Shown: positions 5,014 through 50,052, numbered from the stretch's first letter. The stretch is 64,000 nucleotides of DNA from Escherichia coli (GCF_044324875.1 NZ_CP172185.1); one strand, 5' to 3'. The notes: a model not told the origin generated them from the sequence alone. Program-made: numbers and translations.

Positions 5014-6240
5014 ATGGATAAACTACTTGAGCGATTTTTGAACTACGTGTCTCTGGATACCCAATCAAAGGCAGGGGTGAGACAGGTTCCCAGCACGGAA
5101 GGCCAATGGAAGTTATTGCATCTGCTGAAAGAGCAGCTCGAAGAGATGGGGCTTATCAATGTGACCTTAAGTGAGAAGGGCACTTTGATGGCGACGTTAC
5201 CGGCTAACGTCCCTGGCGATATCCCGGCGATTGGCTTTATTTCTCATGTGGATACCTCACCGGATTGCAGCGGCAAAAATGTGAATCCGCAAATTGTTGA
5301 AAACTATCGCGGTGGCGATATTGCGCTGGGTATCGGCGATGAAGTTTTATCACCGGTTATGTTCCCGGTGCTGCATCAGCTACTGAGTCAGACGCTGATT
5401 ACCACCGATGGTAAAACCTTGTTAGGAGCCGATGACAAAGCAGGTATTGCAGAAATCATGACCGCGCTGGCGGTATTGCAACAGAAAAACATTCCGCATG
5501 GTGATATTCGCGTCGCCTTTACCCCGGATGAAGAAGTGGGCAAAGGGGCGAAACATTTTGATGTTGACGCCTTCGATGCCCGCTGGGCTTACACCGTTGA
5601 TGGTGGTGGCGTAGGCGAACTGGAGTTTGAAAACTTCAACGCTGCGTCGGTCAATATCAAAATTGTAGGCAATAACGTTCACCCAGGCACAGCGAAAGGT
5701 GTAATGGTGAATGCGCTGTCGCTGGCGGCACGTATTCATGCGGAAGTTCCGGCGGATGAAAGCCCGGAAATGACAGAAGGCTATGAAGGTTTCTATCACC
5801 TGGCGAGCATGAAAGGCACCGTTGAACGGGCCGATATGCACTACATCATCCGTGATTTCGACCGTAAACAGTTTGAAGCGCGTAAACGTAAAATGATGGA
5901 GATCGCCAAAAAAGTGGGCAAAGGGTTACATCCTGATTGCTACATTGAATTGGTGATTGAAGACAGTTACTACAATATGCGCGAGAAAGTGGTTGAGCAT
6001 CCGCATATTCTCGATATCGCCCAGCAGGCGATGCGTGACTGCGATATTGAACCGGAACTGAAACCGATCCGCGGCGGTACCGACGGCGCGCAGTTGTCGT
6101 TTATGGGATTACCGTGCCCGAACCTGTTCACTGGCGGTTACAACTATCATGGTAAGCATGAGTTTGTGACTCTGGAAGGTATGGAAAAAGCGGTGCAGGT
6201 GATCGTCCGTATTGCCGAGTTAACGGCGCAACGGAAGTAA
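5014..6240 (+). CDS. pepT: peptidase T (tripeptide aminopeptidase)
   Basis: [19 protein letters not shown]... is the PepT N-terminus. A GAGGGTG Shine-Dalgarno precedes ATG 5014. The longest ORF begins 14 codons earlier. Confidence 0.95.
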
Positions 6241-6248
6241 GCGAAAAG

Positions 6249-6273
6249 GGATGCGGCATGTGATGCCGCATCC
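6249..6273. terminator. bidirectional hairpin between convergent pepT and roxA
   Basis: Perfect 11-bp stem GGATGCGGCAT / ATGCCGCATCC with a GTG loop. Confidence 0.7.
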
Positions 6274-6288
6274 GGCTTAAATCCAAAC

Positions 6289-7410
6289 TTACCCTTCGAA
6301 GAACCAATACCCGCTATTGACCAGCGCCGCGAGCATCGCGAGGAATGACGGATCTTCCAGCGCATCGCCAAAATTCTCCGCAGTCAGCGCAATGTTGCTG
6401 GCGAGTGCATCCAGTGCCGGACGGTGCGGGGAATCGATCTTCTCACCATTGGCATACACGTCGTCGCCAATGCGCAATACGCGCAGACCACCCAGACGCA
6501 CCAGCACTTCACCTTGTTTCAGCGCATCGTAGATTTCATCCGGCTGATAAGGCGGCTCTGGCGGCGCGATATCCAGTTCATGGCGTGACTGGGATATAAA
6601 CTCCCCAAACCATTGCTTAAAGTGTTCCGGCTGGTTGATCAATTCGAGCATCATCTCACGCAGTTTATCCATCTCTTGCGGCAGAACATCCGCAGGATGA
6701 GCGCGAGGTGAAACATCAGGATCGCTGTAGTAGTTGCCGCCCAGTTCACGTTGCAGCACATAATCGGCAAATCCGCTAATCAGTTCCCGCGTATTTGGTG
6801 CGCGAAAACCGACGGAATAGTTCATCGCATTTTCCAGCGCGTAGCCTTCATGGGGGAATCCTGGCGGAATATAAAGAATATCGCCTGGCTCCAGTTCTTC
6901 ATCAATGATGGCTTCGAACGGATCAACCTGTAACAGATCCGGGTGCGGGCAGTGCTGTTTCATTTGCAGCTTTTCGCCCACTCGCCAGCGACGACGTCCG
7001 GTACCCTGAATGATAAACACGTCGTACTGATCGAGATGCGGGCCGACGCCGCCGCCAGGTACAGAAAAAGAGATCATCAGATCATCAATACGCCAGTCCG
7101 GTAGTTCACGGAACGGTCGCATCAGCGCGGCGGTCGGCTCATGCCAGTGGTTCACTGCCTGCACTAACAATGACCAGTTAGTTTCACCGAGATGATCGTA
7201 GCTTTCGAACGGGCCGTGGCTGACCTGCCATTTGCCATCCTGGTGGCTGACCAGTCGACTGTCGACTTCGCTTTCCATCGCCAGACCCGCCAACTCGTCT
7301 GGAGAGATCGGGTCAATAAAATTATTAAAGCCGCGTTTTAACACCACCGGACGTTTCTGCCAGTGACGTTCAAGAAAATCGGGCCAGTTAAGAGTGAGTT
7401 GGTATTCCAT
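6289..7410 (-). CDS. roxA: ribosomal protein uL16 arginine hydroxylase (JmjC/cupin oxygenase) RoxA/YcfD
   Basis: MEYQLTLNWPDFLERHWQKRPVVLKRGF... matches YcfD. The start is taken at the MEYQ methionine. Confidence 0.9.
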   Translation of the reverse strand: MEYQLTLNWPDFLERHWQKRPVVLKRGFNNFIDPISPDELAGLAMESEVDSRLVSHQDGKWQVSHGPFESYDHLGETNWSLLVQAVNHWHEPTAALMRPFRELPDWRIDDLMISFSVPGGGVGPHLDQYDVFIIQGTGRRRWRVGEKLQMKQHCPHPDLLQVDPFEAIIDEELEPGDILYIPPGFPHEGYALENAMNYSVGFRAPNTRELISGFADYVLQRELGGNYYSDPDVSPRAHPADVLPQEMDKLREMMLELINQPEHFKQWFGEFISQSRHELDIAPPEPPYQPDEIYDALKQGEVLVRLGGLRVLRIGDDVYANGEKIDSPHRPALDALASNIALTAENFGDALEDPSFLAMLAALVNSGYWFFEG

Positions 7411-7611
7411 GTTAAGCATCCACAGGCTGGTATCTGCAACCGATTATAACGGATGCTTAACGTAATGCGTGAAGTATGGGCATACTTTATCAATTAGTGT
7501 TTTTTGCCGTTTCATAATGTTTCAGGTTGTGCATTATGTTTTTGATTATAAACAAATTTGTGATTTTTCTTGTTCCAGCTTGTTTCACGTTGTAGCCCTT
7601 TGTGCAACGAT

Positions 7612-7637
7612 CGGTGTAGTTAATGGTGTAGTTAATT
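7612..7637. repeat. attL core: CGGTGTAGTTAATGGTGTAGTTAATT
   Basis: Identical 26-mer at 18721-18746. It contains a tandem 12-mer GGTGTAGTTAAT x2. The imperfect repeat extends leftwards to 7580 (compare 18689). Confidence 0.85.
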
Positions 7638-7658
7638 GTGATGACCGGATTCAAAATT

Positions 7659-8888
7659 ATGAGCAGAGCACTTAACAAGCTGAGCGATACACAGCTAAGG
7701 AAAATCAACGGCACACCCGCCCAAAAAACAGCCTTTCTTAATGACGGTGGAAACTTGAGCGTCAGGCATTCAACCAGCGGCCTTTTAACCTGGTATTTCA
7801 CTTACAGGGCCGGAACGGGAAGGGGGGCATCACCGGAACGCATTAAGCTGGGAAATTATCCTGATCTGAGCCTGAAATCAGCCAGGGAAAAAGCCGCCCA
7901 GTGTCGCGCATGGCTGGCTGAGGGGAAAAATCCACGTCATGAGATGAATTACACCGTACAGGAAGCGTTAAAGCCTGTAACGGTTGGCGATGCGCTCACC
8001 TACTGGCTTGAGTCGTACGCAAAGGAAAACCGTGTGGATTATGACCCACTGAAAAAGCGGCTAAATAATCACGTAATACAGCACATTGGCCCTATGCCGC
8101 TGGATAAATGCGAGCTACGGCACTGGCTGGCCTGTTTTGATCGGGTGGCAAAGCAAGCCCCTGTTTCCGCCGGGTTCCTGCTACAGACATGCAAACAGGC
8201 GCTTAAGTTCTGCCGGAAGCGGCGCTATGCAATCAGCAACGTTCTTGATGATATGAGTGTGGCTGACGTTGGGAAAAAACCGGATATAGGCGAACGTGTC
8301 TTAAGTACCAAAGAACTGGGCGAATTATTGCAGGCACTGGACAAAAAAATATTTTCCCCTTACTACGTCGCACTAATCCGCCTCCTGATTGTTTTCGGAT
8401 GCCGGACAGTAGAACTGAGGTTATCGGAGATCGGCGAGTGGGATTTTACCGAAATGCTCTGGACCGTTCCGAAGGAGCACAGCAAAACGAAGGTAGCCAT
8501 ATTCCGGCCCATACCGGAAGCGATACTGCCGTTCGTCACGCAGCTGATGGAGCAGAACAGGCACACGGGCTTATTGCTGGGGGAAGTGAAACAGGAAACC
8601 AGCGTGTCGCAGTACGGCAGATTAGTGCACAGGAGGCTTAAACACCCTCACTGGTCACTGCATGACATCCGGCGCACCTTTACAACGATGCTGAACGATT
8701 TAGGCGTGGATCCTCACGTCGTGGAGCAGCTTACAGGCCACCAGATGCCAGGAATGCAGCGAGTTTATAATCATTCCCGTTATCTGGATGCGAAACGCAA
8801 TGCGCTGGATATGTGGACGGAGCGGTTAGGGATACTGGCGGGAGCACATGAAAACGTAACCACGCTACCAGTAACCAGAAGAAAATAA
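7659..8888 (+). CDS. int: P4-type tyrosine integrase (DUF4102 N-terminal arm-binding domain)
   Basis: The N-terminus MSRALNKLSDTQLRK...GNLSVRHSTSGLLTWYFTYR...LGNYPDLSLKSAREKA fits the DUF4102 pattern. The C-terminal catalytic region includes HDIRRTF and YNHSRY. The gene lies immediately inside attL. Confidence 0.9.
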   Translation: MSRALNKLSDTQLRKINGTPAQKTAFLNDGGNLSVRHSTSGLLTWYFTYRAGTGRGASPERIKLGNYPDLSLKSAREKAAQCRAWLAEGKNPRHEMNYTVQEALKPVTVGDALTYWLESYAKENRVDYDPLKKRLNNHVIQHIGPMPLDKCELRHWLACFDRVAKQAPVSAGFLLQTCKQALKFCRKRRYAISNVLDDMSVADVGKKPDIGERVLSTKELGELLQALDKKIFSPYYVALIRLLIVFGCRTVELRLSEIGEWDFTEMLWTVPKEHSKTKVAIFRPIPEAILPFVTQLMEQNRHTGLLLGEVKQETSVSQYGRLVHRRLKHPHWSLHDIRRTFTTMLNDLGVDPHVVEQLTGHQMPGMQRVYNHSRYLDAKRNALDMWTERLGILAGAHENVTTLPVTRRK

Positions 8889-9262: not shown

Positions 9263-9451
9263 GTGTTAAGCACTGATCGGTTTATACGTGAAAAAGAATG
9301 CGAAAAGCTAACAGGCCTTAGCCGCTCATGCCGCTACCGCCTGGAAAAGGCCGGACAATTCCCATCACGGCGTAAGCTGGGCGGTCGTTCCGTTGGCTGG
9401 TCTTTATCCGAAGTTCTGGCATGGAAGGAAAGCTGCGAGGCAGTTCACTAA
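9263..9451 (+). CDS. alpA: AlpA-family transcriptional regulator / excisionase-like HTH protein (GTG start)
   Basis: 62 aa. The segment FIREKECEKLTGLSRSCRYRLEKAGQFPSRRKLGGRSVGWSLSEVLAWK is the typical AlpA/Prophage_CP4-57 regulator pattern. An AAGGGGG Shine-Dalgarno lies upstream. Confidence 0.8.
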   Translation: MLSTDRFIREKECEKLTGLSRSCRYRLEKAGQFPSRRKLGGRSVGWSLSEVLAWKESCEAVH

Positions 9452-11347: not shown

Positions 11348-11635
11348 ATGAAAAATAAAAATTCTGGCGTTAATGCCAGCGGCCCCGCTCGTCCTGAAAT
11401 CCGTCCCGGCGATATTTTCCGTGATAACTACGGCGGCACGGTAATGATTAAGGGCGTGGAAGAACGGCGCGTAACCTACCGCCGTGATGGCTACGAATAT
11501 GACTGCGTTATGCCTGTTTATCAGTTCCGGCGTGATTTCACGCTGGTGGGCCATCGTAAAGCCGTTAATCAGAAACGTGCTGCAAGTTATATCCGCAAAA
11601 TCCGTGAAATGCTGGTCGCAGGGGGTAAGAAATGA
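11348..11635 (+). CDS. hypothetical protein, possibly DUF4222-like
   Basis: 95 aa. The pattern RPGDIFRDNYGGTVMIKGVEERRVTYRRDGYEYDCVMPVYQFRRDF resembles the small DUF4222 proteins of lambdoid phages; this is a low-certainty recollection. Its stop overlaps the rep start. Confidence 0.4.
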   Translation: MKNKNSGVNASGPARPEIRPGDIFRDNYGGTVMIKGVEERRVTYRRDGYEYDCVMPVYQFRRDFTLVGHRKAVNQKRAASYIRKIREMLVAGGKK

Positions 11636-13038
11636 AACTTGCACCGAACGTAAAACTGTTACCGAAAGATAAACACACTGAGGCGGTTATTTTTGCGGGT
11701 GATAATGCTCACTCCTTTGCAGAACATTACATGATTGCACAGGCCAAAAAAGCAGGCGATCCCATCCCTCCGGTTTACCTGGGCCGTTATCAGTTAAGCG
11801 AACTGGACAACTTACAGATTGTTGATGAAGGACGATACAGGGCAAAGGTCATACGCGCCGGAAACCTGGACGATATGCAGATGCTGACCATTGCCACAAA
11901 ACTGGCGATCGCCGGAGTCCAGGAGGCGCGCCTACTTTCTGAAAATTTCGAACTGCTGGAGGACTGGAGCGACCAGCTACCACGACTACGGGAAACATGG
12001 GAGAGAGGGGAAAGCCTGGTCATGAATGGCGGAAAGCGAAAAATCACACTTCCCATCTCATGGGGTTCTGAGGGATTCGATGCGCAGCAAAGCTACGTCA
12101 TTAAGGGGCTTATTCCGGCTGAGTCATTATGCAGCACCTACGGGGCCAGCGGTTCTTATAAATCGTTCCTCGCCATTTCCTGGTCGTGCCATGTTGCCAC
12201 AGGTATGGCATGGGGAGGCCGCAGGGTAAGTAAGGGTGCGGTTATCTATATCGCTGGCGAAGGCAGCATGGGCGTAAAACGCCGCGTTAAGGCGTGGGAG
12301 ATAACCCACGACAAGGTGGTTACAGATTTGTGCATCATTAACGCGCCTGTTTTCCCTGCATCGCCTGACTATGTGGAGCAGGTTATCAGGACTGCCGGAC
12401 TTGTTAAGAGCAGAACGGGCGAAAATGTGCGGCTGATTGTGATCGACACGCTGGCCCGTTGCTTTGGTGGGAATGATGAAAATGATTCCCGTGATATGGG
12501 CGCATTTATCCAGGGGTGTGACGCGATAAAGCAGGCCACAGGGGCCACGGTGCTGGTGGTTCACCATTCCGGCAAGGATGAAACAAAGGGGGCGCGTGGT
12601 TCCAGTGCATTCCGTGCCGCGCTTGATGCAGAGTACCGAATCAGCCGCGAAAATTCAGACGTTACAGCACTGGTCGCAGCATGTACGAAGATGAAGGACG
12701 CAGAGGAGCCAAAAGAGAGCGCATACGACCTTAAAAGCGTGGAGGTGTTCACCGATACAGATGGCGAAGAAATTGTGTCCATGGTGGTGATTGACGTTCC
12801 CCGCGCCCCTGCTGAACTGGAGCGCATCGAGGAGGCAGGCAACAAGACGGAAAACCATACCGCGCTATGGGGGTGCATCCGTTCACGCACACAGAACGGC
12901 GACAAGTGCACGATCCCGCTGTTACGTGATGACATGAAACGGCTTGGGTATGACGTGAAAAATATGCGGCGATGGTTAGCCAAACTGGAAAAAGACGCCG
13001 TGATTTACATTGATGGTGATGATGTAGGACCACTGTAA
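11632..13038 (+). CDS. RepA-like (AAA_25/RecA-fold) replication ATPase/helicase
   Basis: 468 aa with a Walker A-like GASGSYKS, Walker B LIVIDTLARC and VLVVHHSGKDETKGARGSSAF, typical of RepA/DnaB-like helicases. An iteron array follows immediately. Confidence 0.7.
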   Translation: MKLAPNVKLLPKDKHTEAVIFAGDNAHSFAEHYMIAQAKKAGDPIPPVYLGRYQLSELDNLQIVDEGRYRAKVIRAGNLDDMQMLTIATKLAIAGVQEARLLSENFELLEDWSDQLPRLRETWERGESLVMNGGKRKITLPISWGSEGFDAQQSYVIKGLIPAESLCSTYGASGSYKSFLAISWSCHVATGMAWGGRRVSKGAVIYIAGEGSMGVKRRVKAWEITHDKVVTDLCIINAPVFPASPDYVEQVIRTAGLVKSRTGENVRLIVIDTLARCFGGNDENDSRDMGAFIQGCDAIKQATGATVLVVHHSGKDETKGARGSSAFRAALDAEYRISRENSDVTALVAACTKMKDAEEPKESAYDLKSVEVFTDTDGEEIVSMVVIDVPRAPAELERIEEAGNKTENHTALWGCIRSRTQNGDKCTIPLLRDDMKRLGYDVKNMRRWLAKLEKDAVIYIDGDDVGPL

Positions 13039-13237
13039 AAAGTGAGTAGTAAAAGTGAGTAATGGTGAGGTTTTTACAAAATATTAACACAATTACTCAC
13101 TTTCTCACCTGTATACATGCTCAAAAGTGAGCAGTGAAAAAACACTTATGAAACATGCACATATAAAACACAAAAATCTCAAGTGAGACGAAGTGAGACG
13201 CTTTAAAAAGTGAGTAGTAAAAGTGAGAGATGGTGAG
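13037..13237. repeat. iteron-type replication origin candidate (AGTGAG repeats flanking an AT-rich core)
   Basis: A 33-nt repeat AAAAAGTGAGTAGTAAAAGTGAG(TA/AG)ATGGTGAG occurs at 13037-13069 and 13205-13237. An inverted CTCACTTTCTCACC lies at 13096-13109, AAGTGAGCAGTGA near 13125, and a tandem AAGTGAGACG x2 at 13181-13200. Confidence 0.65.
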
Positions 13238-13611: not shown

Positions 13612-13854
13612 ATGAAGGTAAACCACAAAAAGACAGATCACCGCGCCATTGACCTTACAGAGCACTGGCTGAGGGTGGCGATAAAAATCATCGACCGCAA
13701 CACGGGGGAAGGATACGCGAAAGCACATCCCGAACTGATAAGTGCATTCATGACCACAGCGGCGGCAAACTTTGCCACGCTGACAGAGCGGGATATTGCC
13801 GAAGCAGAACAGGTAACAACCATCAACGTTAAAACCAGTGAGGTGGAATCATGA
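13612..13854 (+). CDS. hypothetical protein
   Basis: 80 aa. It overlaps the ssb start by 4 nt (ATGA). Confidence 0.45.
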   Translation: MKVNHKKTDHRAIDLTEHWLRVAIKIIDRNTGEGYAKAHPELISAFMTTAAANFATLTERDIAEAEQVTTINVKTSEVES

Positions 13855-14261
13855 CAGCACAGATAGCGGCTTACGGGCGGCTGGTGGACGACCCGCAGGT
13901 AAAACAGACCAGTAAGGGTACACCGATGACGCTGGCGCGTATGGCGGTATCTTTACCATGCGGCCAGGCACAGGACGGACAGGCGACGTTATGGTTATCG
14001 GTCATCGCATTTGGCAAACAGGCCGACTTTCTGGCTAAACATCAAAAAGGCGACGTTGCCAGCGTATCCGGCACGATGCAGGTCAGCCAGTGGACCGGAC
14101 AGAACGGGGAAACGCGGCAGGGTTATCAGGTTATTGCAGACAGCGTAATCAGTGCCCGTGCGGCACGTCCTGGCGGGAACAGACGCAAAACCACAGGCAC
14201 ACAGGGTAATCAGCCACCAGCGGGAGGCGATGACCCTTACGGTGATGATATTCCGTTCTGA
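13851..14261 (+). CDS. ssb: single-stranded DNA-binding protein
   Basis: 136 aa with an OB-fold N-terminal region (AYGRLVDDPQ...TLWLSVIAFGKQA), a Gly/Pro/Gln-rich linker and the canonical acidic tip DDIPF. Confidence 0.85.
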   Translation: MTAQIAAYGRLVDDPQVKQTSKGTPMTLARMAVSLPCGQAQDGQATLWLSVIAFGKQADFLAKHQKGDVASVSGTMQVSQWTGQNGETRQGYQVIADSVISARAARPGGNRRKTTGTQGNQPPAGGDDPYGDDIPF

Positions 14262-14271
14262 GGGGGTGACG

Positions 14272-14544
14272 ATGGTACATGACCGCATAGCGGAGGAACT
14301 CGAGGCAAAAGGATTTTACCGGAGGGCGGCGGCGCGATGGGGTGAAGTTATGAGGCTGGTGAGCACTGACAAGGAGCGCGAACAGGTGGCAATGCGACGG
14401 CTGGAATGTTCCCTGAAGGCACAGAGGCCACCGGAGCCGCCGGATGATTTAGGCGCTCTGAAAAGGTCAGTTAATCGCACTGAAAAACAAATGGGGATAG
14501 CTGGTATTGGCAAAGCAATATGGCGCAACTACCCGCAGAAGTGA
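14272..14544 (+). CDS. PerC-family transcriptional activator-like protein
   Basis: MVHDRIAEELEAKGFYRRAAARWGEVM... matches the PerC/Pch signature (LE.KG.WRRAA.RW..V) as I remember it. The start is taken at ATG 14272 after GGGGGTGA. Confidence 0.55.
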   Translation: MVHDRIAEELEAKGFYRRAAARWGEVMRLVSTDKEREQVAMRRLECSLKAQRPPEPPDDLGALKRSVNRTEKQMGIAGIGKAIWRNYPQK

Positions 14545-14550
14545 GCACAC

Positions 14551-14573
14551 AGCCGGAGCAATCCGGCTTTTTT
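14551..14573 (+). terminator. intrinsic terminator ending the early/replication operon
   Basis: AGCCGGA-GCAA-TCCGGCT followed by TTTTT. Confidence 0.8.
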
Positions 14574-14584
14574 ACGCCTAAAAA

Positions 14585-14621
14585 AAGCCCGATAAGGTCA
14601 AAGGGGGCTTATCGGGCTTTT
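14585..14621 (+). terminator. second hairpin terminator
   Basis: 12-bp stem AAGCCCGATAAG / CTTATCGGGCTT followed by TT. Confidence 0.6.
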
Positions 14622-14784
14622 GTAGAGGAGGTTTTTTATGGTGCACTGGCACACATGATCGGGATAATCATTTCATAATTTGCAACATAACTCAATATTG
14701 TTGCGCAAAATGCAATCATGATTATAATCAGGACTGGATGAACATCCAGTTATGATTTTTTAAGTCAAAGAGGAATTTCTGACT

Positions 14785-14991
14785 ATGGCAGAAGAGAAAA
14801 AAGGCGGGGTGACGGTCTACATAAGCCCCGACATCGTGGAGGCGCTCAAGGAACGCCACCAGCAGAATGTAAAAGCAGGCATTGCGGCAGGACTTGATCC
14901 GCTGGCGATGGTTGAGCCGTCAACAGGCTGGCAGGTGCGTACCTATTTACGTGCGGCGCTGGGTATCAATCAGGTTCACGGAGGTGAATAA
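14785..14991 (+). CDS. hypothetical small protein, first gene of the capsid operon
   Basis: 68 aa. AGAGGA Shine-Dalgarno. Its TAA overlaps the capsid ATG (TAATG). Confidence 0.5.
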   Translation: MAEEKKGGVTVYISPDIVEALKERHQQNVKAGIAAGLDPLAMVEPSTGWQVRTYLRAALGINQVHGGE

Positions 14992-16046
14992 TGACAGGCA
15001 AAGCAAAGGCACTTACAACTAACCAGCTTTTCGCGTACCTGAATCGCGGGGATATTTCGGAATATAAATTTAGTCCGCTGTTTACCACGCTGTTTTTCCC
15101 GAACGTGGCGACCTTCAACACCCAAAACATCATGCTGGACACCCTGGACATTGAAGAGGTTACGATGTCAGCGTTCTGTTCTCCTATGGTGGGTAGTCAG
15201 GTCCAGCGCGATAAAGGGTACGAAACCAGCACGATTAAACCAGGCTACATGAAGCCAAAGCACGAAATCGATCCAACAAAGACCATCATGCGCATGGATG
15301 GAGAAGATCCGGCACAGCTTAACGATCCAACTTACCGCCGTATGCGCCTGATTACTGGCAACATGCGCCGCCAGATAAACGCCATTAAGGCGCGCGTGGA
15401 ATGGCTGGCGGTGAATGCGGTAACGACCGGAAAAAACATCATTGAGGGCGAAGGCATAGAACGCTATGAAATCGACTGGAAAATACCGGAAAACTGCATC
15501 ATACAGCAGGCCAGTGGTAAAAAATGGTCCCAGCAGGATAAAGACATGCACGACCCAATCTATGACATCGAGCTTTATGCTGATCAGGCAGGTTGCCCCG
15601 CCAACGTCATGATTATGGGCGGTGAGGTATGGCGCACATTACGCAGCTTTAAAAAATTCCGTGAACTGTACGATCTTTCCCGTGGATCAGAATCCGCCGC
15701 CGAGCTGGCCTGTAAAAACCTGGGCGAAGTGGTGAGCTTTAAAGGCTATCTTGGTGATCTGGCCCTTATCGTCTATTCCGGCAAATACACTGACAGCGAC
15801 GGGACCGAAAAATATTTCCTTGAGCCTGATTTGCTGGTCCTGGGTAACACCAACAATAAAGGGCTGGTGGCATATGGTGCGATTATGGATCAGGAAGCGG
15901 TAAGAACGGGCGCAACGCAAAACATGTACTACCCGAAAAACTGGATTGAGGACGGCGATCCGGCGATTGAGTACGTGCAGACGCACAGCGCACCGCAGCC
16001 TGTACCGGCAGATATTCGCAAATTTGTTACCGTCAAAATTGCTTAA
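14991..16046 (+). CDS. major capsid protein, lambda gpE family
   Basis: 351 aa. It aligns by eye along its length with lambda gpE: FSPLFTTLFFPN vs FDPLFLRLFFRE, KPGYMKPKHEIDP vs TPGYVKPKHEVNP, YPKNWIEDGDPA..SAPQP vs YPKNWVTTGDPA..SAPLM, and C-terminal FVTVKIA vs FVSVQLA. Confidence 0.9.
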   Translation: MTGKAKALTTNQLFAYLNRGDISEYKFSPLFTTLFFPNVATFNTQNIMLDTLDIEEVTMSAFCSPMVGSQVQRDKGYETSTIKPGYMKPKHEIDPTKTIMRMDGEDPAQLNDPTYRRMRLITGNMRRQINAIKARVEWLAVNAVTTGKNIIEGEGIERYEIDWKIPENCIIQQASGKKWSQQDKDMHDPIYDIELYADQAGCPANVMIMGGEVWRTLRSFKKFRELYDLSRGSESAAELACKNLGEVVSFKGYLGDLALIVYSGKYTDSDGTEKYFLEPDLLVLGNTNNKGLVAYGAIMDQEAVRTGATQNMYYPKNWIEDGDPAIEYVQTHSAPQPVPADIRKFVTVKIA

Positions 16047-16057
16047 CGGGGGATTCT

Positions 16058-16393
16058 ATGGACGCTCCATACATTGAGTTATTTTCAGGCAGCCAACAGG
16101 TATCCACGACGCTGGTACATTTTGCCGCTGATGCTGGCGTTATTCAGGAATTTACCCCGCTGATGCTGGCAGACAATGGCGAGTTTAAGCCGTGGGATGG
16201 TAAGGAATCTGGCAAGGCTGTTTATCTGACCTCGTACCCTGTGGACACGTCAAAGCAGAAATCAGCACAGTGTTACAAGACGGGGATATTCAATATTGCC
16301 GCCGTTAACTGGCCTGACAGCGTCGACACCGATGCGAAAAAATGCGCCGCCTTTGCGGGTTCCGGCGTATCCGTTCAGCCGCTGGCCCGATAA
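16058..16393 (+). CDS. head decoration protein, lambda gpD family
   Basis: 111 aa (gpD is about 110). TPLMLADNGEFKPWDG vs lambda TPLMLDTSSRKLVAWDG; YKTGIFN..VNWP...KKCAAFAGSGVSV vs YKSGTFR..VLWP...KKRTAFAGTAISI. Confidence 0.85.
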   Translation: MDAPYIELFSGSQQVSTTLVHFAADAGVIQEFTPLMLADNGEFKPWDGKESGKAVYLTSYPVDTSKQKSAQCYKTGIFNIAAVNWPDSVDTDAKKCAAFAGSGVSVQPLAR

Positions 16394-16467
16394 GCAGGGG
16401 GAACGATGGCACAAACCAGGGCGATGACGGCGACATCTATCGCATACTGAAAACCATCTGAGACAAG

Positions 16468-16490
16468 GCCGGAGAAATCCGGCTTTTTTT
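16468..16490 (+). terminator. intrinsic terminator after the capsid operon
   Basis: GCCGGA-GAAA-TCCGGC followed by TTTTTTT. It is the same hairpin family as the terminator at 14551. Confidence 0.8.
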
Positions 16491-16710
16491 GCGGGTCCTT
16501 TCCGGCATGTGGACCCGTTACGGGGCGTCGACCTCGCACGTTTTCGCTATTTATGAAAATTTTCCGGGAAAAAGCATGTCAGTTCTTCTTGTTATTAACA
16601 TATTGTTTTTAAAGAAATAACTATCAAGAAAGAAACGACATCATAATGATGAAAAATCTGTTTTTTTTGGCATTTCATGTCGTAACTGATTTTTGATAAG
16701 GAATTGCTGA
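16491..16710 (+). other. lambda-type cos region (cosQ-like 16493-16505, cosN cohesive-end 12-mer 16523-16534, cosB-like R/IHF region to about 16700)
   Basis: GCGGGTCCTTTCCGG...GTTACG|GGGCGTCGACCT|CGCACGTTTTCGCTATTTATGAAAATTTTCCGG compares with lambda ACGGGTCCTTTCCGG...GTTACG|GGGCGGCGACCT|CGCGGGTTTTCGCTATTTATGAAAATTTTCCGG (lambda recalled from memory). R2-like AAGAAAGAAACGACAT. It lies directly upstream of the Nu1 homologue, as in lambda. Confidence 0.8.
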
Positions 16711-17295
16711 ATGAATGTTAATAAAAAGAGGCTTGCCGAAATTTTTAACGTGGACCCGCGGACGATTGAACGCTGGCAGTCACAGGGGCTTCCTTGCGTC
16801 TCCAAAGGCAGTAAGGGCATTGAATCTGTATTTGATACTGCCATGGCAATTCAGTGGTATGCGCGGAGGGAAACTGATATCGAAAACGAAAAGCTCCGCA
16901 AAGAACTGGACGATTTGCGTGCGGCAGCGGAGTCAGATTTACAACCCGGCACCATTGACTATGAACGCTATCGGCTCACAAAAGCGCAGGCAGATGCGCA
17001 GGAACTTAAAAACGAGCGCGATCGCGGTGACGTGATTGATACAGAGTTTTGCATGTACGCGCTTTCAAAACTGGCGAGTCAGATTTCATCAATCATGGAC
17101 AGCCTCCCGCTTACTATGCAAAGGAGCTTCCCACAGATGACCCCCGCCATGCTGGATGGCCTGAAAAAAGAAGTTGTCAGAGCCTGTAACGCATGCACAA
17201 AACTTGATGAAAACATCCCGCGAATGCTGTCCGATTATCTGATGGAAACTACCGGAAATGTGCCTGATAAGTTTCAGCCGGATAAAGACAAGTAA
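16711..17295 (+). CDS. terminase small subunit, lambda Nu1 family
   Basis: [28 protein letters not shown]... vs lambda MEVNKKQLADIFGASIRTIQNWQEQGMP. A long conserved block is shared: IENEKLR...[26 protein letters not shown]. 194 aa vs 181 in lambda. Confidence 0.9.
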
Positions 17296-17635: not shown

Positions 17636-17935
17636 ATGGAGGACATGACCATGACCGAGACCGAAGCGCTCGGGATAATCCGCAGTATTACCGGAATCAG
17701 CCAGCAGGCTGGCGAACAGGAGGCCACGCAGCCGGACAGCGTGATCGCCGAAAATTACGTGCGTGTTGTTGCTGATGTAATGCGCCGTGATGGTATTGAG
17801 CTTAACGGCGTGGATATGCGCGACATACGAATCAGAGTACTAGAGTTGCTGGCATACCGTCGACGCGTGGCGATGTATCAGGAGAGCGCGAAAAACACTT
17901 ATCAGTGGAAGAAGCCGGAGCGGTTACGGCGGTAA
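17636..17935 (+). CDS. hypothetical protein (accessory position between packaging gene and attR)
   Basis: About 99 aa from ATG 17636, with AAGGAGG 13 nt upstream. The longest ORF starts at 17537. No family was recognised. Confidence 0.4.
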   Translation: MEDMTMTETEALGIIRSITGISQQAGEQEATQPDSVIAENYVRVVADVMRRDGIELNGVDMRDIRIRVLELLAYRRRVAMYQESAKNTYQWKKPERLRR

Positions 17936-17937
17936 CT

Positions 17938-18510
17938 GGTTGATATTTTCGAAATTCGCCAGCGGCGAACATCGGGGAAACCAGCCTAACCAGTTGATTC
18001 TTTCGGAAACAGCCATTGGCGGAATCCGGCGCGGTAACTTGCTGATATTCCCGATAACGCAAAATTGCGCTGGCTACATCCCTCACATCTGAGGACTGAT
18101 AATGCGACATTGCGCTGGCTGGCAAAGTGCAAAATTGCACGATGGCCTAACCCATTGATTATTTCGAAAACCTGCAATGCAGGAAATCGGGGAAGTAAGC
18201 CTAAGCTATTGATTCTTTCGGAAACCTCAATTTGAGGAAGTCGGCGCGGTAACTCGCTGAACTTAAAGCAAACCTCAAAATTGAGCTGGCTGAATAATCA
18301 TTATGATTACGCAGATGATTAAGGAATGACCGAAGGCGGAAATTCGCCTGTGGTTGATGGGGGAGTTGCAGATCTGCAACTCGACCATGAAACTACGGAA
18401 ACTACCCGTAGTTTGGGTAGTAAGAGTAACACCCAGATTTTGGGACTTACTCGTGATACCCAAATTTGGAGTATCGGTGGCAACCATAACGACTTTCGTT
18501 ACGGTTGATG
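17938..18510. repeat. non-coding array of about 15 short palindromes/hairpins embedded in a duplicated scaffold
   Basis: Two homologous units (about 17941-18076 and 18155-18292) share flanks such as TTGATTCTTTCGGAAAC and CGGCGCGGTAACT. They carry different palindromes at the same three positions. Further palindromes continue to a 12-bp-stem hairpin at 18481-18507. Confidence 0.7.
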
Positions 18511-18720
18511 CTTTTACCCCATTGGGGGAAAGGTATTACGATAATCATAACACCTACCGAACAGGTAAAGCCCACCAGCCTGATTGACATTTAACCGGAA
18601 AAAAAGCCAGGTAGCCCCGTTATGTGGATCCCCATATCGACAGCAACGCCCCCTTAAAATTACCCGCCTTTATATTTCTTGTGCCTATTTGTTCCACGTT
18701 GTTTCATACAGTGCGCCGAA

Positions 18721-18746
18721 CGGTGTAGTTAATGGTGTAGTTAATT
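18721..18746. repeat. attR core: CGGTGTAGTTAATGGTGTAGTTAATT
   Basis: Identical to 7612-7637. Confidence 0.85.
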
Positions 18747-27317: not shown

Positions 27318-27896
27318 TTGTTATGTCTTATCCCACGGTATTTAATATGGTTCATTAGGATGTTTATTTCTTGATTTTGCATATGAGTATATTACCCCCT
27401 CAAAAAACAAATTAATTAAAAATTAAAACCATTGTTTAGATAAAACAAAATTTAAAGCAAGAAATCTCAATAGATATTAAACAAAATGAGATTTAGTGAA
27501 AACATTAAATTATTCACTTCGTTTTAGATTTGTTTAGCTAAAATGTTATACATTCAAATGACTGAACATCCTGTAATTAAAACATAGCCTTTATACTACT
27601 TTGTGCCAATTTGCTAAACATTATGGTTGGCCTTTTATTTAACGATAATGACGAATATAAGCATAACATGAGAATAAGATTTCAGTTTTTTAGTTATATA
27701 GGAATGGTTTAACCCATTCCTGGCTAAAATACATATAACTGGATGATGACTAAACCAAAACACATGTGCGTTAAGTATTGAAACGGGCGTATGGCACGCC
27801 CGTTGTAGACTGGCCCCCTGAATCTCCAGACAACCAGTATCACTTAAATAAGTGATAGTCTTAATACTAGTTTTTAGACTAGTCATTGGAGAACAG

Positions 27897-28262
27897 ATGA
27901 TTGATGTCTTAGGGCCGGAGAAACGCAGACGGCGTACCACACAGGAAAAGATCGCAATTGTTCAGCAGAGCTTTGAACCGGGGATGACGGTCTCCCTCGT
28001 TGCCCGGCAACATGGTGTAGCAGCCAGCCAGTTATTTCTCTGGCGTAAGCAATACCAGGAAGGAAGTCTTACTGCTGTCGCCGCCGGAGAACAGGTTGTT
28101 CCTGCCTCTGAACTTGCTGCCGCCATGAAGCAGATTAAAGAACTCCAGCGCCTGCTCGGCAAGAAAACGATGGAAAATGAACTCCTCAAAGAAGCCGTTG
28201 AATATGGACGGGCAAAAAAGTGGATAGCGCACGCGCCCTTATTGCCCGGGGATGGGGAGTAA
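27897..28262 (+). CDS. insC: IS2 OrfA (InsC)
   Basis: [53 protein letters not shown]. Confidence 0.95.
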
Positions 28263-29125
28263 GCTTAGTCAGCCGTTGTCTCCGGGTGTCGCGTGCGCAG
28301 TTGCACGTCATTCTCAGACGAACCGATGACTGGATGGATGGCCGCCGCAGTCGTCACACTGATGATACGGATGTGCTTCTCCGTATACACCATGTTATCG
28401 GAGAGCTGCCAACGTATGGTTATCGTCGGGTATGGGCGCTGCTTCGCAGACAGGCAGAACTTGATGGTATGCCTGCGATCAATGCCAAACGTGTTTACCG
28501 GATCATGCGCCAGAATGCGCTGTTGCTTGAGCGAAAACCTGCTGTACCGCCATCGAAACGGGCACATACAGGCAGAGTGGCTGTGAAAGAAAGTAATCAG
28601 CGATGGTGCTCTGACGGGTTCGAGTTCCGCTGTGATAACGGAGAAAAACTGCGAGTCACGTTCGCGCTGGACTGCTGTGACCGTGAGGCACTGCACTGGG
28701 CGGTCACTACGGGCGGCTTCAACAGTGAAACAGTACAGGACGTCATGCTGGGAGCGGTGGAACGCCGCTTCGGCAACGAGCTTCCGGCGTCTCCAGTAGA
28801 GTGGCTGACGGATAATGGTTCATGCTACCGGGCTAATGAAACACGGCAGTTTGCCCGGATGTTGGGGCTTGAACCGAAGAGCACGGCGGTGCGGAGTCCG
28901 GAGAGTAACGGCATAGCAGAGAGCTTCGTGAAAACGATAAAGCGTGACTACATCAGTGTCATGCCCAAACCAGACGGGTTAACGGCAGCAAAGAACCTTG
29001 CAGAGGCGTTCGAGCATTATAACGAATGGCATCCGCATAGTGCACTGGGTTATCGCTCGCCACGGGAATATCTACGGCAGCAAGCCAGTAATGGGTTAAG
29101 TGATAACAGGTGTCTGGAAATATAG
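28220..29125 (+). CDS. insD: IS2 OrfB (InsD, DDE transposase; normally made as an OrfAB fusion by -1 frameshift)
   Basis: 301 aa with an rve integrase core (WCSDGFEF...DNGSCY...ESNGIAES). Confidence 0.95.
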
Positions 29126-29356
29126 GGGCAAATCCACGTTGTTTTTTATAAATATGTTAACCGCTATAAAATAACGTATAGAAAGTCAAGTGATCACATT
29201 TCAAATATCAAGTTGATAGTATTGATCTGGTGATTATTTATGGGTGGCAATAAAAAGATAGTATTACTCATCCATATGAATAGTCTCTGCACTTTTATTT
29301 CCATTATGCTAATGCCTTACTGAATTATGAAGCATTTTTTAAGCGTCCAACTTTAG

Positions 29357-38455: not shown

Positions 38456-38554
38456 TGCGTATTCCGCTCTATTCGATCACGGATTGGCATCGAAGTCCGA
38501 TCAGCGATTCGCATCCATTCGATCAACCGGGAACTTAACTTTTTCTACCGCTTT

Positions 38555-39310
38555 TTAACGCGTTTTTTCGCTGCTTTCCACTACCGGGGGATTTTTCCTC
38601 AGTGACTCTCCCTGAAGGACCACTCGGTGTGAGTTATGTACCAGTCTGTCCAGGATGGCATCTGCTGTTGTTGGGTTCTCCATCAGACCATGCCATTTAT
38701 CTACCGGGAACTGGCTTACCACTATCGTGCTGCTTTGTCCGTAACGATCCTCTATGAGCTCCAGAAGGTCATTACACTGGGCGTTACTTAACTGTTCCAG
38801 CCCCAGATCGTCCAGGATTAGAACCTGTATTTTTTGCAACTGTTTCAGATATTTCAGCCAGCTGCCATCAACACGTCCCTGAGCCAGTTGTTCCAGTAAT
38901 CGCCCGGTTCTACAGTACCGGACGCTGTGTTTCTGTCGACATGCCTGTTCGCCCAGCGCATTGGCTATCCAGCTCTTGCCACATCCTGTCGGACCGGTTA
39001 TCAGCAGGTTTTTCCTGTGGGTTATGTAGTGGCCGTTCAGCAGTTCTCTCATCTGTTCAGCCCGCAGACCTCTTGAGGCCGGATAGCGCAGCCCTTCCGG
39101 TGTTGCCTGGTATTTCAGGCCGGCATTTTTTCTCAACCGTGCCACACGGCTGTTTTCCCTGCTCAGAAGCTCGTCATCAACCAGCAGCGTCAGCCTTTCC
39201 TCGAACGACAGTTCGTCGTAGGTCTGAGGCGTTTCCCGCTGCCGTATCAGGCTCCCGGCCATCGCCGGGAGTTTCAGTTGGGTCAGTTTGTTTAACAGGT
39301 TATCACTCAT
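38555..39310 (-). CDS. istB: IS21-family IstB ATP-binding helper
   Basis: MSDNLLNKLTQLKLPAMAGSL... with Walker A GPTGCGKS and Walker B LILDDLG. Confidence 0.9.
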   Translation of the reverse strand: MSDNLLNKLTQLKLPAMAGSLIRQRETPQTYDELSFEERLTLLVDDELLSRENSRVARLRKNAGLKYQATPEGLRYPASRGLRAEQMRELLNGHYITHRKNLLITGPTGCGKSWIANALGEQACRQKHSVRYCRTGRLLEQLAQGRVDGSWLKYLKQLQKIQVLILDDLGLEQLSNAQCNDLLELIEDRYGQSSTIVVSQFPVDKWHGLMENPTTADAILDRLVHNSHRVVLQGESLRKNPPVVESSEKTR

Positions 39311-39326
39311 ACTGTTGTTCCTTCTG

Positions 39327-40892
39327 TCAGTGGTAGTAGCCCGGACCACGCAGGTTTTCATGCTCTGAAGCATATGCCGGATGTTGTTCGCCCTGGCGGG
39401 ATAATGGAAGCTCCAGGTTCTCCCGATGGTGACGCAGCAGATTGTCGATAAAGCGTCTGTCAGGGGCGTTATAGTGCAGGGCAACGTAACAGGCCTTTTC
39501 CAGCCGTTCCGGGCCGTATTTTTTCTGAAGTGCCAGCAGCCCCAGAACTGCACGATAAGCCAGTTCCGGATGGGGTTTTGCCTTCAGCATGGATTCAACC
39601 ACCCGGCCTGTGGACGGGCCCGTACGTTTTCCCTGCTCGATCAGGCGTTCCGGTGTCCATGTCCCGTGCTGCCGGTGGCGCTCTGGCATGTGAAGCGGAT
39701 TGGTTGTGTGTTTATATTCATGTGTGCTGCGCGGATGTTGCGCCACACACTGCCCCTTGTGCCAGAGCTGTACCACCGACTGCCCCGCCTTCAGTGACAG
39801 ACGCTGACCGACCAGTTCGTGTGGAACGGAGTACCAGTGACGGGCATATTCAACGTGGTAGTCAGGGCCAACCTTCACAGCTTTGTATTCCGTGTATTCA
39901 TAAGGTGCCAGAGGCAGCGGAGAGAGTGCTGGCGCATCCAGTATGCGGAAGCGTTCTGCACGGGTTTGATTGCCGTACCCCTTCATTGGCCGGTTATTCA
40001 TGTCTGTCAGTAACTCCCTAAGGCGCGCATTCAGCGCCCTGAGCGTGTGGAAGGTTTCATTACGGATGCGGGCAAGAAGCCATCGTTCAACGATGAGGAC
40101 GCCGTTTTCTGCTTTTGGTTTATCTTTAGGTTTGCGTGGTCGGGCCGGGATGATAACCGTGCCATAGTGCTCAGCCAGTGCCTGATAACTGTCGTTGATG
40201 ACAGGCTCATATCGATCGGCCTTTTTCACTGCGCTTCTGAGGTTATCGGGGATGAGCAGCTTCGGTACGCCGCCCAGGAAGGTCAGGCAACGGCTGTGGG
40301 CATTTAACCATGACATCATGTCCTGACCTTCGCACGCTTCAACGTAGGTATAGTTGGACGCCCCCATTACGGCCACGAAGATTGCCACGCGGCGTATCTC
40401 ACCGGTGTCCGGATTAATAACAGGAACCGTAGGACCACAGAAGTCGATAAAAAGCTTTTCGCCGGCACGATGCTCCTGGCGCATGGAGAGACGTCGCGTT
40501 TTTTTCCACTCCCGGTAGCAACGGCAGAAGTGCGAGTATCCCATCGCTTTGTTACCCGCCTGTGCCTTGTATTCCATCCACAACAGTTGCCGCGTCACAC
40601 CTGGTTTTCTCATTTCCGTATCGAAGTACAACATGTCAGGCATTACAAGCTCTGATGCAAAGGTGTCTTTGGGCGGAAAAATGAGTTTCTCCAGCGTGTC
40701 ATGGGATATATCAGCAGGTAATGGCCATGACAGAGAAGAGGCTTTGAAGCGGGCAAGAACCTCAAAAACGGTTGAGGCGCTGATGTGTAACGTCAGTCCG
40801 ATACAACGGTTAGTCAGCTTCTTGTCGAACTTGAGCTGAAGGATCTTAAAACAGGTTTCCATAGTGCTCCTGGATTTTCTCTTTCTGGACAT
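39327..40892 (-). CDS. istA: IS21-family IstA transposase
   Basis: About 520 aa with an HTH N-terminus and a DDE core (FIDFCG...VAVMGASNYTY...PDNLRSAV...KPKAENG). Start MSRKRK follows GGAGA. Confidence 0.9.
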   Translation of the reverse strand: MSRKRKSRSTMETCFKILQLKFDKKLTNRCIGLTLHISASTVFEVLARFKASSLSWPLPADISHDTLEKLIFPPKDTFASELVMPDMLYFDTEMRKPGVTRQLLWMEYKAQAGNKAMGYSHFCRCYREWKKTRRLSMRQEHRAGEKLFIDFCGPTVPVINPDTGEIRRVAIFVAVMGASNYTYVEACEGQDMMSWLNAHSRCLTFLGGVPKLLIPDNLRSAVKKADRYEPVINDSYQALAEHYGTVIIPARPRKPKDKPKAENGVLIVERWLLARIRNETFHTLRALNARLRELLTDMNNRPMKGYGNQTRAERFRILDAPALSPLPLAPYEYTEYKAVKVGPDYHVEYARHWYSVPHELVGQRLSLKAGQSVVQLWHKGQCVAQHPRSTHEYKHTTNPLHMPERHRQHGTWTPERLIEQGKRTGPSTGRVVESMLKAKPHPELAYRAVLGLLALQKKYGPERLEKACYVALHYNAPDRRFIDNLLRHHRENLELPLSRQGEQHPAYASEHENLRGPGYYH

Positions 40893-41094
40893 TGACGTCT
40901 CCACTGGTTTAAACACGGCAATGGAGACTGTGGTGAAAAGAGTTAATTCCCGGAGTGACTGGCAGGATGCCAATCAATGATCGGAAGCATGCCAAATCGT
41001 GATCGATTGTGATGCCAAACTGTGATCGGAGATGGATGCCAAATCATGATCGATTCGAATGCCAAACTGCGATCGATTCAGATGCCATTTTGCA

Positions 41095-49720: not shown

Positions 49721-50052
49721 AATCATTTGCCTCTTTAAATATATAAATTGTAATGAAACTCCTGTTTTACAACTATTAATGAATTTTACTTCATCTAATT
49801 CATAGTTAGCCGGGCGAGATGCGTCAATGTCTTTATTTCTATTAATATGATAAATATCAAACAATGTTTAATGTCATTATGGCGAATGCTTCTATTCTAT
49901 TTTTTAGCCGGGTGATATTTTTCATTTCTGCTGGATGAGCGTCGTCGCCAGAAGGCGCGTGAGCACAGGATAAGAGAACGAAAAATCAGCAGTCTATGCA
50001 GCGACAAATATTGATAGCCTGAATCAGTATTGATCTGCTGGCAAGAACAGAC

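Follow-up and report, generated by a model that had tools for sequence, protein, structure and literature searches.

The orf68–E–D genes of an Escherichia coli phage satellite belong to the capsid-gene feature already described in EcCICFT073

EcCICFT073 of Escherichia coli strain CFT073 is the well-studied prototype of the Gram-negative phage-inducible chromosomal islands (PICIs), and its induction, replication and high-frequency transfer by helper phage have been established experimentally (PMC6092414). In this island c1499 was described as a putative capsid protein and c1500 as a head decoration protein by Fillol-Salom et al. (2018), who deleted each gene in view of the precedent of Ccm in SaPIbov5 (PMC6092414). 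With either deletion the plating of lambda was not restored and island transfer by the resident CFT073 prophages was unchanged; DNA in EcCICFT073 particles was all phage-sized, and capsid size redirection was ruled out by the authors (PMC6092414). Later work attributed both interference and packaging specificity to Rpp, the product of c1503 (PMC6739421). Our literature search for later functional work on c1499 and c1500 found none. Here we analyse the corresponding genes, orf68, E and D, of an island that lies in a stretch of 64,000 nt of E. coli DNA (GCF_044324875.1, NZ_CP172185.1; hereafter the window, with positions counted from its first letter).

Capsid genes in satellites have several precedents. 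Mageeney et al. (2023) recorded a major capsid gene in 21 of the 29 reference Gram-negative PICIs, where it is not needed for transfer; with the capsid gene E as the commonest insertion site, they put forward a backup role (PMC10111431). Like the window island, SaPIbov5 is a satellite of the cos type with a gene for a homologue of the major capsid protein of its helper. The likeness ends with the phenotype: Ccm gives small capsids and interference, whereas the orthologues of E and D did neither in the published tests. The capsid-forming PICIs (cf-PICIs), with EcCIEDL933 as example, likewise have their own major capsid protein and small terminase on a common int/alpA/rep backbone. They carry, however, a full head and packaging set (portal, protease, connectors, large terminase subunit (TerL) and HNH) and make their own small capsids, while the window island has only E, D and a small terminase subunit (TerS). 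An earlier note on this stretch had considered it unusual for a satellite to supply its own shell protein, a view that does not survive the comparison with the reference PICIs, Ccm and the cf-PICIs.

The window island occupies the same site between roxA and phoQ as EcCICFT073 does in strain CFT073, and the two integrases are 95% identical. Both islands contain the same orf68–E–D unit with identical gene lengths, the products being 93% (orf68), 95% (E, c1499) and 96% (D, c1500) identical, and both have the PerC-family gene, the single-stranded DNA-binding protein (SSB) gene and the terminators upstream of it. The differences lie in the neighbouring modules. The window island is without the 137-amino-acid (aa) Nu3-like gene c1501, has a Nu1-type TerS and a lambda-like cosB where CFT073 has RppA, and carries a RepA-like helicase instead of the D5-type primase. 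It is near certain that orf68–E–D is the conserved capsid-gene unit of an EcCICFT073-type PICI. The unit is thus an allele-level member of a feature that has already been described; it is real but not new.

The assignment of the individual genes is well founded. E matches Pfam Phage_cap_E (PF03864, E-value 2e-49) over profile positions 14–328 of 329, and D matches HDPD (PF02924, E-value 1e-17). Among structures in the PDB, E is 95% identical to 3BQW, followed by lambda gpE (7VI9, E-value 4e-81), while D is closest to SHP of phage 21 (1TD0, E-value 3e-12) and lambda gpD (1C5E, E-value 9e-9). Judged by these matches, E is a complete gpE-type shell protein and D is its cognate gpD-type cement protein. 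The stop codon of orf68 and the start codon of E share the motif TAATG at 14989–14993. Among the nine satellite copies compared, which range from E. coli to Edwardsiella, eight keep this overlap and one has a 2-nt gap. In families, folds and the adjoining cos–Nu1 module the unit is like the head shell region of lambda. It differs from lambda in its low identity (43% for E, 36% for D), in satellite-specific insertions in the N-arm of E and in gene order, as lambda has D (5747–6079) before E (6135–7160). The island also lacks the portal, protease, full scaffold, large terminase subunit and head-completion genes of lambda. The earlier note had correctly described an orf68–gpE–gpD operon in a satellite, with the orf68 stop overlapping the gpE start, the reversed gene order and a terminator on either side of the unit (hairpins at 14551–14617 and 16467–16490). 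Its headline was a possible takeover of capsid size or capsid identity by these genes. The size part is contradicted for the orthologue, because the deletions of c1499 and c1500 were silent for lambda interference and transfer, no small capsids were formed and the packaged DNA was all phage-sized.

The orf68–E–D trio is widespread and well preserved. It was found in 597 of 5426 complete E. coli genomes (11%) and was full-length in all copies examined. Gene lengths do not vary among E. coli copies, and in other genera they deviate by only a few codons. The ratio of non-synonymous to synonymous substitution rates (dN/dS) of E is about 0.08–0.13 in informative pairs and still about 0.08 at a dS of about 1.07. 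For D, pairwise values are mostly 0.1–0.25 (range 0.06–0.40). For orf68 they are 0.11–0.25 against the window copy and up to 0.44 among other alleles, with 0.76 for one pair of nearly identical copies that differ by only 7 substitutions. The trio is under strong purifying selection.

Phage homologues of the pair are distant: in 50,697 phage records the maximal identity is 47% for E and 47% for D. All E homologues checked (94% to 54% identity; from E. coli, Salmonella, Edwardsiella and Serratia) lie in int–alpA–rep islands with E before D, and the satellite E proteins have signature insertions in the N-arm in common. By this distribution the trio is an old lineage living only in satellites. Edwardsiella tarda provides a direct comparison (island L005), since there the island lies inside the portal gene of the helper and satellite E–D is only a few kb from helper D–E. 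The two E proteins are 46.5% identical and the helper has the order D then E. The E/D pair is not a recent capture because no phage record exceeds 47% identity to it, even the adjoining L005 helper E reaches only 46.5%, and the N-arm insertions are specific to satellites; recent capture from a helper was accordingly ruled out. A related island of Salmonella Glostrup (L014) lies inside the large terminase gene of its helper. A 463-aa protein (P0074) with both Phage_cap_E and HDPD domains appears to be an E–D fusion in the satellite gene order.

D is followed in most of the related islands examined by the 137-aa gene known as c1501 in CFT073, which belongs to PHROG 1999 and is annotated publicly (PGAP) as 'hypothetical' or 'head-tail connector'. 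Residues 117–200 of lambda Nu3 match the PHROG 1999 profile with an E-value of 2.7e-26, and the c1501-type protein matches the C-terminus of gpC of an Edwardsiella helper in BLASTP (E-value 2e-7). Direct BLASTP of the c1501-type protein to lambda Nu3 gave nothing, so that the link to Nu3 is made through the PHROG profile and this one gpC. On these two matches the c1501-type gene is a homologue of the C-terminal domain common to the lambda protease gpC and the scaffold gpNu3, and the label 'head-tail connector' was dropped in favour of this assignment. In the window the gene has been lost by deletion between 9-bp repeats ACGATGGCA, and the identical deletion is present in the island of E. coli ECCNB12-2 (L009). 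The ECCNB12-2 island is at the tqsA site and has a trio 99.8% identical to that of the window, but a different integrase, site and backbone; such a trio in a different island backbone means that PICIs exchange modules. Note that ECCNB12-2 has an Rpp-type gene in place of TerS.

The unit is flanked by terminators. Those upstream are two strong hairpins (fold z = -6.2). The 27-mer of the downstream terminator is 89% identical to the upstream terminator; it was not picked up by the pattern scanner and was called from reading of the sequence and from its fold. Between the upstream terminators and orf68 there is a weak −35 element (TTGCGC, 14701–14706) followed, after a 16-nt spacer, by a perfect −10 element (TATAAT, 14723–14728), and three TGCAA(C/T)-type repeats overlap these elements. 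In alignment the promoter elements and the repeats are conserved from E. coli through Edwardsiella satellites. A consensus scanner missed this promoter with its weak −35, and our call is based on sequence reading and conservation. The arrangement suggests that the capsid unit has a dedicated, probably activator-dependent promoter. The TGCAA(C/T) repeats are a candidate operator for some activator or for orf68 itself.

The nature of the orf68 product is less clear. An AlphaFold2 model (pLDDT 75) contains a strand at residues 9–13 and helices at 15–34 and 47–58. Nothing in Pfam reached threshold, and 4 of 17 family members gave sub-threshold matches to RHH_1 and BrnA (E-values 0.02–0.15), which makes a ribbon–helix–helix identity a weak lead. 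A sequence-profile search of the PDB returned noise only, tblastn against the 50,697 phage records gave no match, and no similarity to lambda W, FI, FII or Nu3 was seen. The orf68 profile found 15 matches among 1.84 billion representatives, all of them the same narrow family or its fragments. A sister clade of satellite E/D modules does not have orf68. The idea that orf68 determines capsid size finds no support in this small strand–helix–helix protein, which the sister clade does without. For orf68, a role as a small regulatory or DNA-binding partner, or as a partner in assembly, is more likely than one in setting capsid size.

The unit is followed by packaging functions. Directly after the downstream terminator stands cosQ (GGGTCCTTTCCGG, 16493–16505) and then cosN (GGGCGTCGACCT, 16523–16534), which has one mismatch to lambda. 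The island TerS is 53% identical to lambda Nu1 overall. Its N-terminal DNA-binding half is 59% identical to Nu1 and 38% to TerS of the PKF4 island, whereas in the C-terminal half the identity is 97% to the PKF4-island protein and 47% to lambda. The protein is a domain mosaic, which suggests that cos-recognition domains have been swapped onto a conserved TerL-binding domain. The att cores are 11,109 bp apart, in agreement with the 11.1-kb genome given in the earlier note. Four such units amount to 44.4 kb or about 92% of lambda, three copies to 69% and five to 114%. With the packaging range of 75–105% of lambda cited in that note, three or five copies would fall outside, and only four units are allowed. 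The proposal of about four concatemeric copies in a helper-sized head therefore holds as arithmetic. It also agrees with the published data, as particle DNA of the 95%-identical orthologue was phage-sized only (PMC6092414).

The E/D pair, its satellite context, a crystal structure and the knockout phenotypes are all on record for the 95%-identical counterpart at this chromosomal site. What is left is a puzzle: the pair is found in most reference Gram-negative PICIs, is under purifying selection and forms a satellite-only lineage, yet has been dispensable in all tests so far. The question is sharpened by that lineage, by the Nu3-like neighbour and by the natural variants without it, and an explanation for the retention of E and D would improve our picture of the way in which satellites exploit lambdoid phages. 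The explanation we favour, which we rate as an even call, is that satellite E and D serve as supplementary shell subunits in helper-sized heads; the co-assembly part of it we infer. The unit would be transcribed from its own weak −35, probably activator-dependent promoter during helper growth. E and D would then enter helper-sized (T=7) heads nucleated by the portal, protease and scaffold of the helper, as extra or substitute shell subunits and not as a size-changing device. Packaging would use the island's own lambda-like cos and take in about four concatemeric units (44.4 kb), with the island's Nu1-type TerS recruiting the large terminase of the helper. If helper gpE and gpD do the same job, the pair would be dispensable with lambda-like helpers in the laboratory, and the silent knockouts are proposed to reflect this redundancy. 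A benefit would arise where the capsid supply of the helper is limiting, interrupted (as in the helper-embedded relatives) or incompatible. Several points weigh against this explanation. No published work that we found has demonstrated that particles contain satellite E or D, co-assembly is assumed although the helper gpE has only 43–47% identity, and the promoter with its regulation is read from conservation alone. Strong purifying selection over a long time fits poorly with full redundancy; therefore a specific function that this explanation does not name probably exists. The knockout results may also not transfer fully, because EcCICFT073 has Rpp and the Nu3-like gene while the window variant has TerS and no Nu3-like gene.

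Other explanations take the same evidence differently. In a backup role, the satellite's own E and D would allow heads to form even while the satellite is inserted in the late operon of its helper or represses it. Relatives embedded in helper late genes, namely the portal gene (L005, Edwardsiella) and the large terminase gene (L014, Salmonella), speak for it, as do the preferred insertion in E and the proposal of Mageeney et al. (PMC10111431). However, neither the window island nor EcCICFT073 is embedded, the embedded relatives that we found interrupt B or A and not E or D, and the distance between satellite and helper E in L005 shows no recent capture of the interrupted gene. We consider this role rather unlikely. 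A conditional form of the takeover raised in the earlier note, to which we give a still smaller chance, would operate with natural helpers other than lambda and phi80; satellite E would then form satellite-specific shells, either small or of satellite-only composition, with the help of D, of the Nu3-like mini-scaffold where present and perhaps of orf68. CpmB acts through a scaffold-like C-terminus, which is a likeness to such a takeover. The family module contains a shell protein, a cement protein and mostly a homologue of the scaffold C-terminal domain (Nu3 117–200 in PHROG 1999), all parts are under strong selection, and Ccm is a precedent for size redirection by a capsid-protein homologue. 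Yet EcCICFT073 with the full module gave phage-sized DNA only, and transfer of its mutants was normal whether lambda or the resident prophages served as helper. In the window island, moreover, the Nu3-like gene is deleted. An 11.1-kb monomer or dimer would call for shells of T=3 or T=4, for which the island encodes no adapted portal or protease.

Interference by E and D themselves, through unstable mixed shells or portal-less decoys that use up scaffold and lower the helper yield, would fit a general PICI trait, and head assembly could suffer from a divergent shell subunit made alongside that of the helper. Since rpp was intact when the single deletions were assayed, any weaker contribution of E or D may have been hidden. 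Nevertheless, these deletions gave no relief of lambda interference, for which Rpp is the packaging blocker; a poison needs no cognate decoration protein and would also harm packaging of the satellite in the same heads. Such a function seems improbable to us. That the pair is a relic, a captured phage head module decaying without present function, agrees with the deletions without phenotype and with the loss of the neighbouring Nu3-like gene in the window island. The selection data contradict it (dN/dS about 0.1 over dS above 1), frames and translational coupling are intact across genera, and among the copies examined of a trio present in 11% of E. coli genomes none was truncated, which makes a relic by far the least credible. 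One long shot combines several of these elements: the lineage of orf68, E, D and the Nu3-like gene could be a conditional head-building kit that makes chimeric or smaller satellite shells on the portal of a natural lambdoid helper and is switched on via the TGCAA repeats, possibly by orf68. The tests with lambda and phi80 would have been blind to it because the parts are fully redundant there.

The positions of the unit and of the other island features are collected in Table 1. Pfam and PHROG scans of all island open reading frames (ORFs) gave E, D and TerS as the only virion-related genes, and no portal, maturation protease, head-tail connectors, large terminase, tail or lysis genes were found among them by these scans. 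Without portal, protease and large terminase the island is unable to make heads alone. The absence of portal, protease, TerL and connectors from the 11.1-kb island rules out cf-PICI membership. All features by which a classical Gram-negative PICI can be recognised from sequence are present: a small size (within about 10–15 kb) at an att-bounded specific site, int at the left end followed by alpA and the replication module in the same orientation, cos with TerS, and neither tail or lysis genes nor a full head set.

Table 1. Features of the island and of its orf68–E–D unit, in window coordinates
Feature	Position	Strand	Remarks
attL core	7612–7637	+	26-nt exact direct repeat; wider 75-nt repeat 7563–7637
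Tyrosine integrase	7638–8888	+	95% identical to EcCICFT073 integrase; likely true start ATG at 7659
AlpA-family regulator	9263–9451	+	Pfam PF05930, E-value 5e-18
RepA-like AAA_25 helicase, replication module	11632–13038	+	D5-type primase here in CFT073
Two 37-nt direct repeats directly 3' of helicase gene	13033–13237		Probably ori iterons, from the PICI ori position in PMC6092414
SSB	13851–14261	+	99% identical to CFT073 island SSB
PerC-family regulator	14272–14544	+	Directly upstream of capsid unit; Pfam PF06069, E-value 1e-37
Two successive intrinsic-terminator hairpins	14551–14621	+	14551–14568 followed by T-run; 14587–14617 between A7 and T4
Conserved promoter region upstream of orf68	14675–14728	+	Putative promoter, from sequence and alignment
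orf68	14785–14991	+	68 aa; satellite-restricted small protein; PHROG 3255
E, lambda gpE-type (HK97-fold) major capsid protein	14991–16046	+	351 aa; orthologue of c1499 / PDB 3BQW
D, gpD/SHP-type head decoration protein	16058–16393	+	111 aa; orthologue of c1500
Remnant of c1501-type gene	16406–16461	+	Start codon and last 15 codons, out of frame; intact copy e.g. in L004, 10584–10997
Intrinsic terminator closing capsid unit	16467–16490	+	GGCCGGA-GAAA-TCCGGCT followed by T7
Lambda-type cos	16493–16700	+	cosQ, cosN, then diverged cosB-like region
Full-length Nu1-type small terminase (TerS)	16711–17295	+	PF07471, E-value 1.4e-71; RppA at this position in EcCICFT073
94-aa conserved protein	17651–17935	+	PHROG 1561; 74% identical to last EcCICFT073 gene
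attR core	18721–18746	+	26-nt repeat

The non-coding region from the last island gene towards attR (17935–18670) contains many short NNNCAAAATTGNNN palindromes together with direct repeats of 113 nt and 23 nt. An Rfam scan of the whole window found no RNA family within the island. Outside the island, the icd site within the window holds no prophage. Insertion sequence elements (rve-family transposase; IS21-type istA/istB) are located at 27800–29200 and 38500–41000 and adjoin autotransporter gene fragments downstream of icd. The small RNA C0299 is at 49954–50032.

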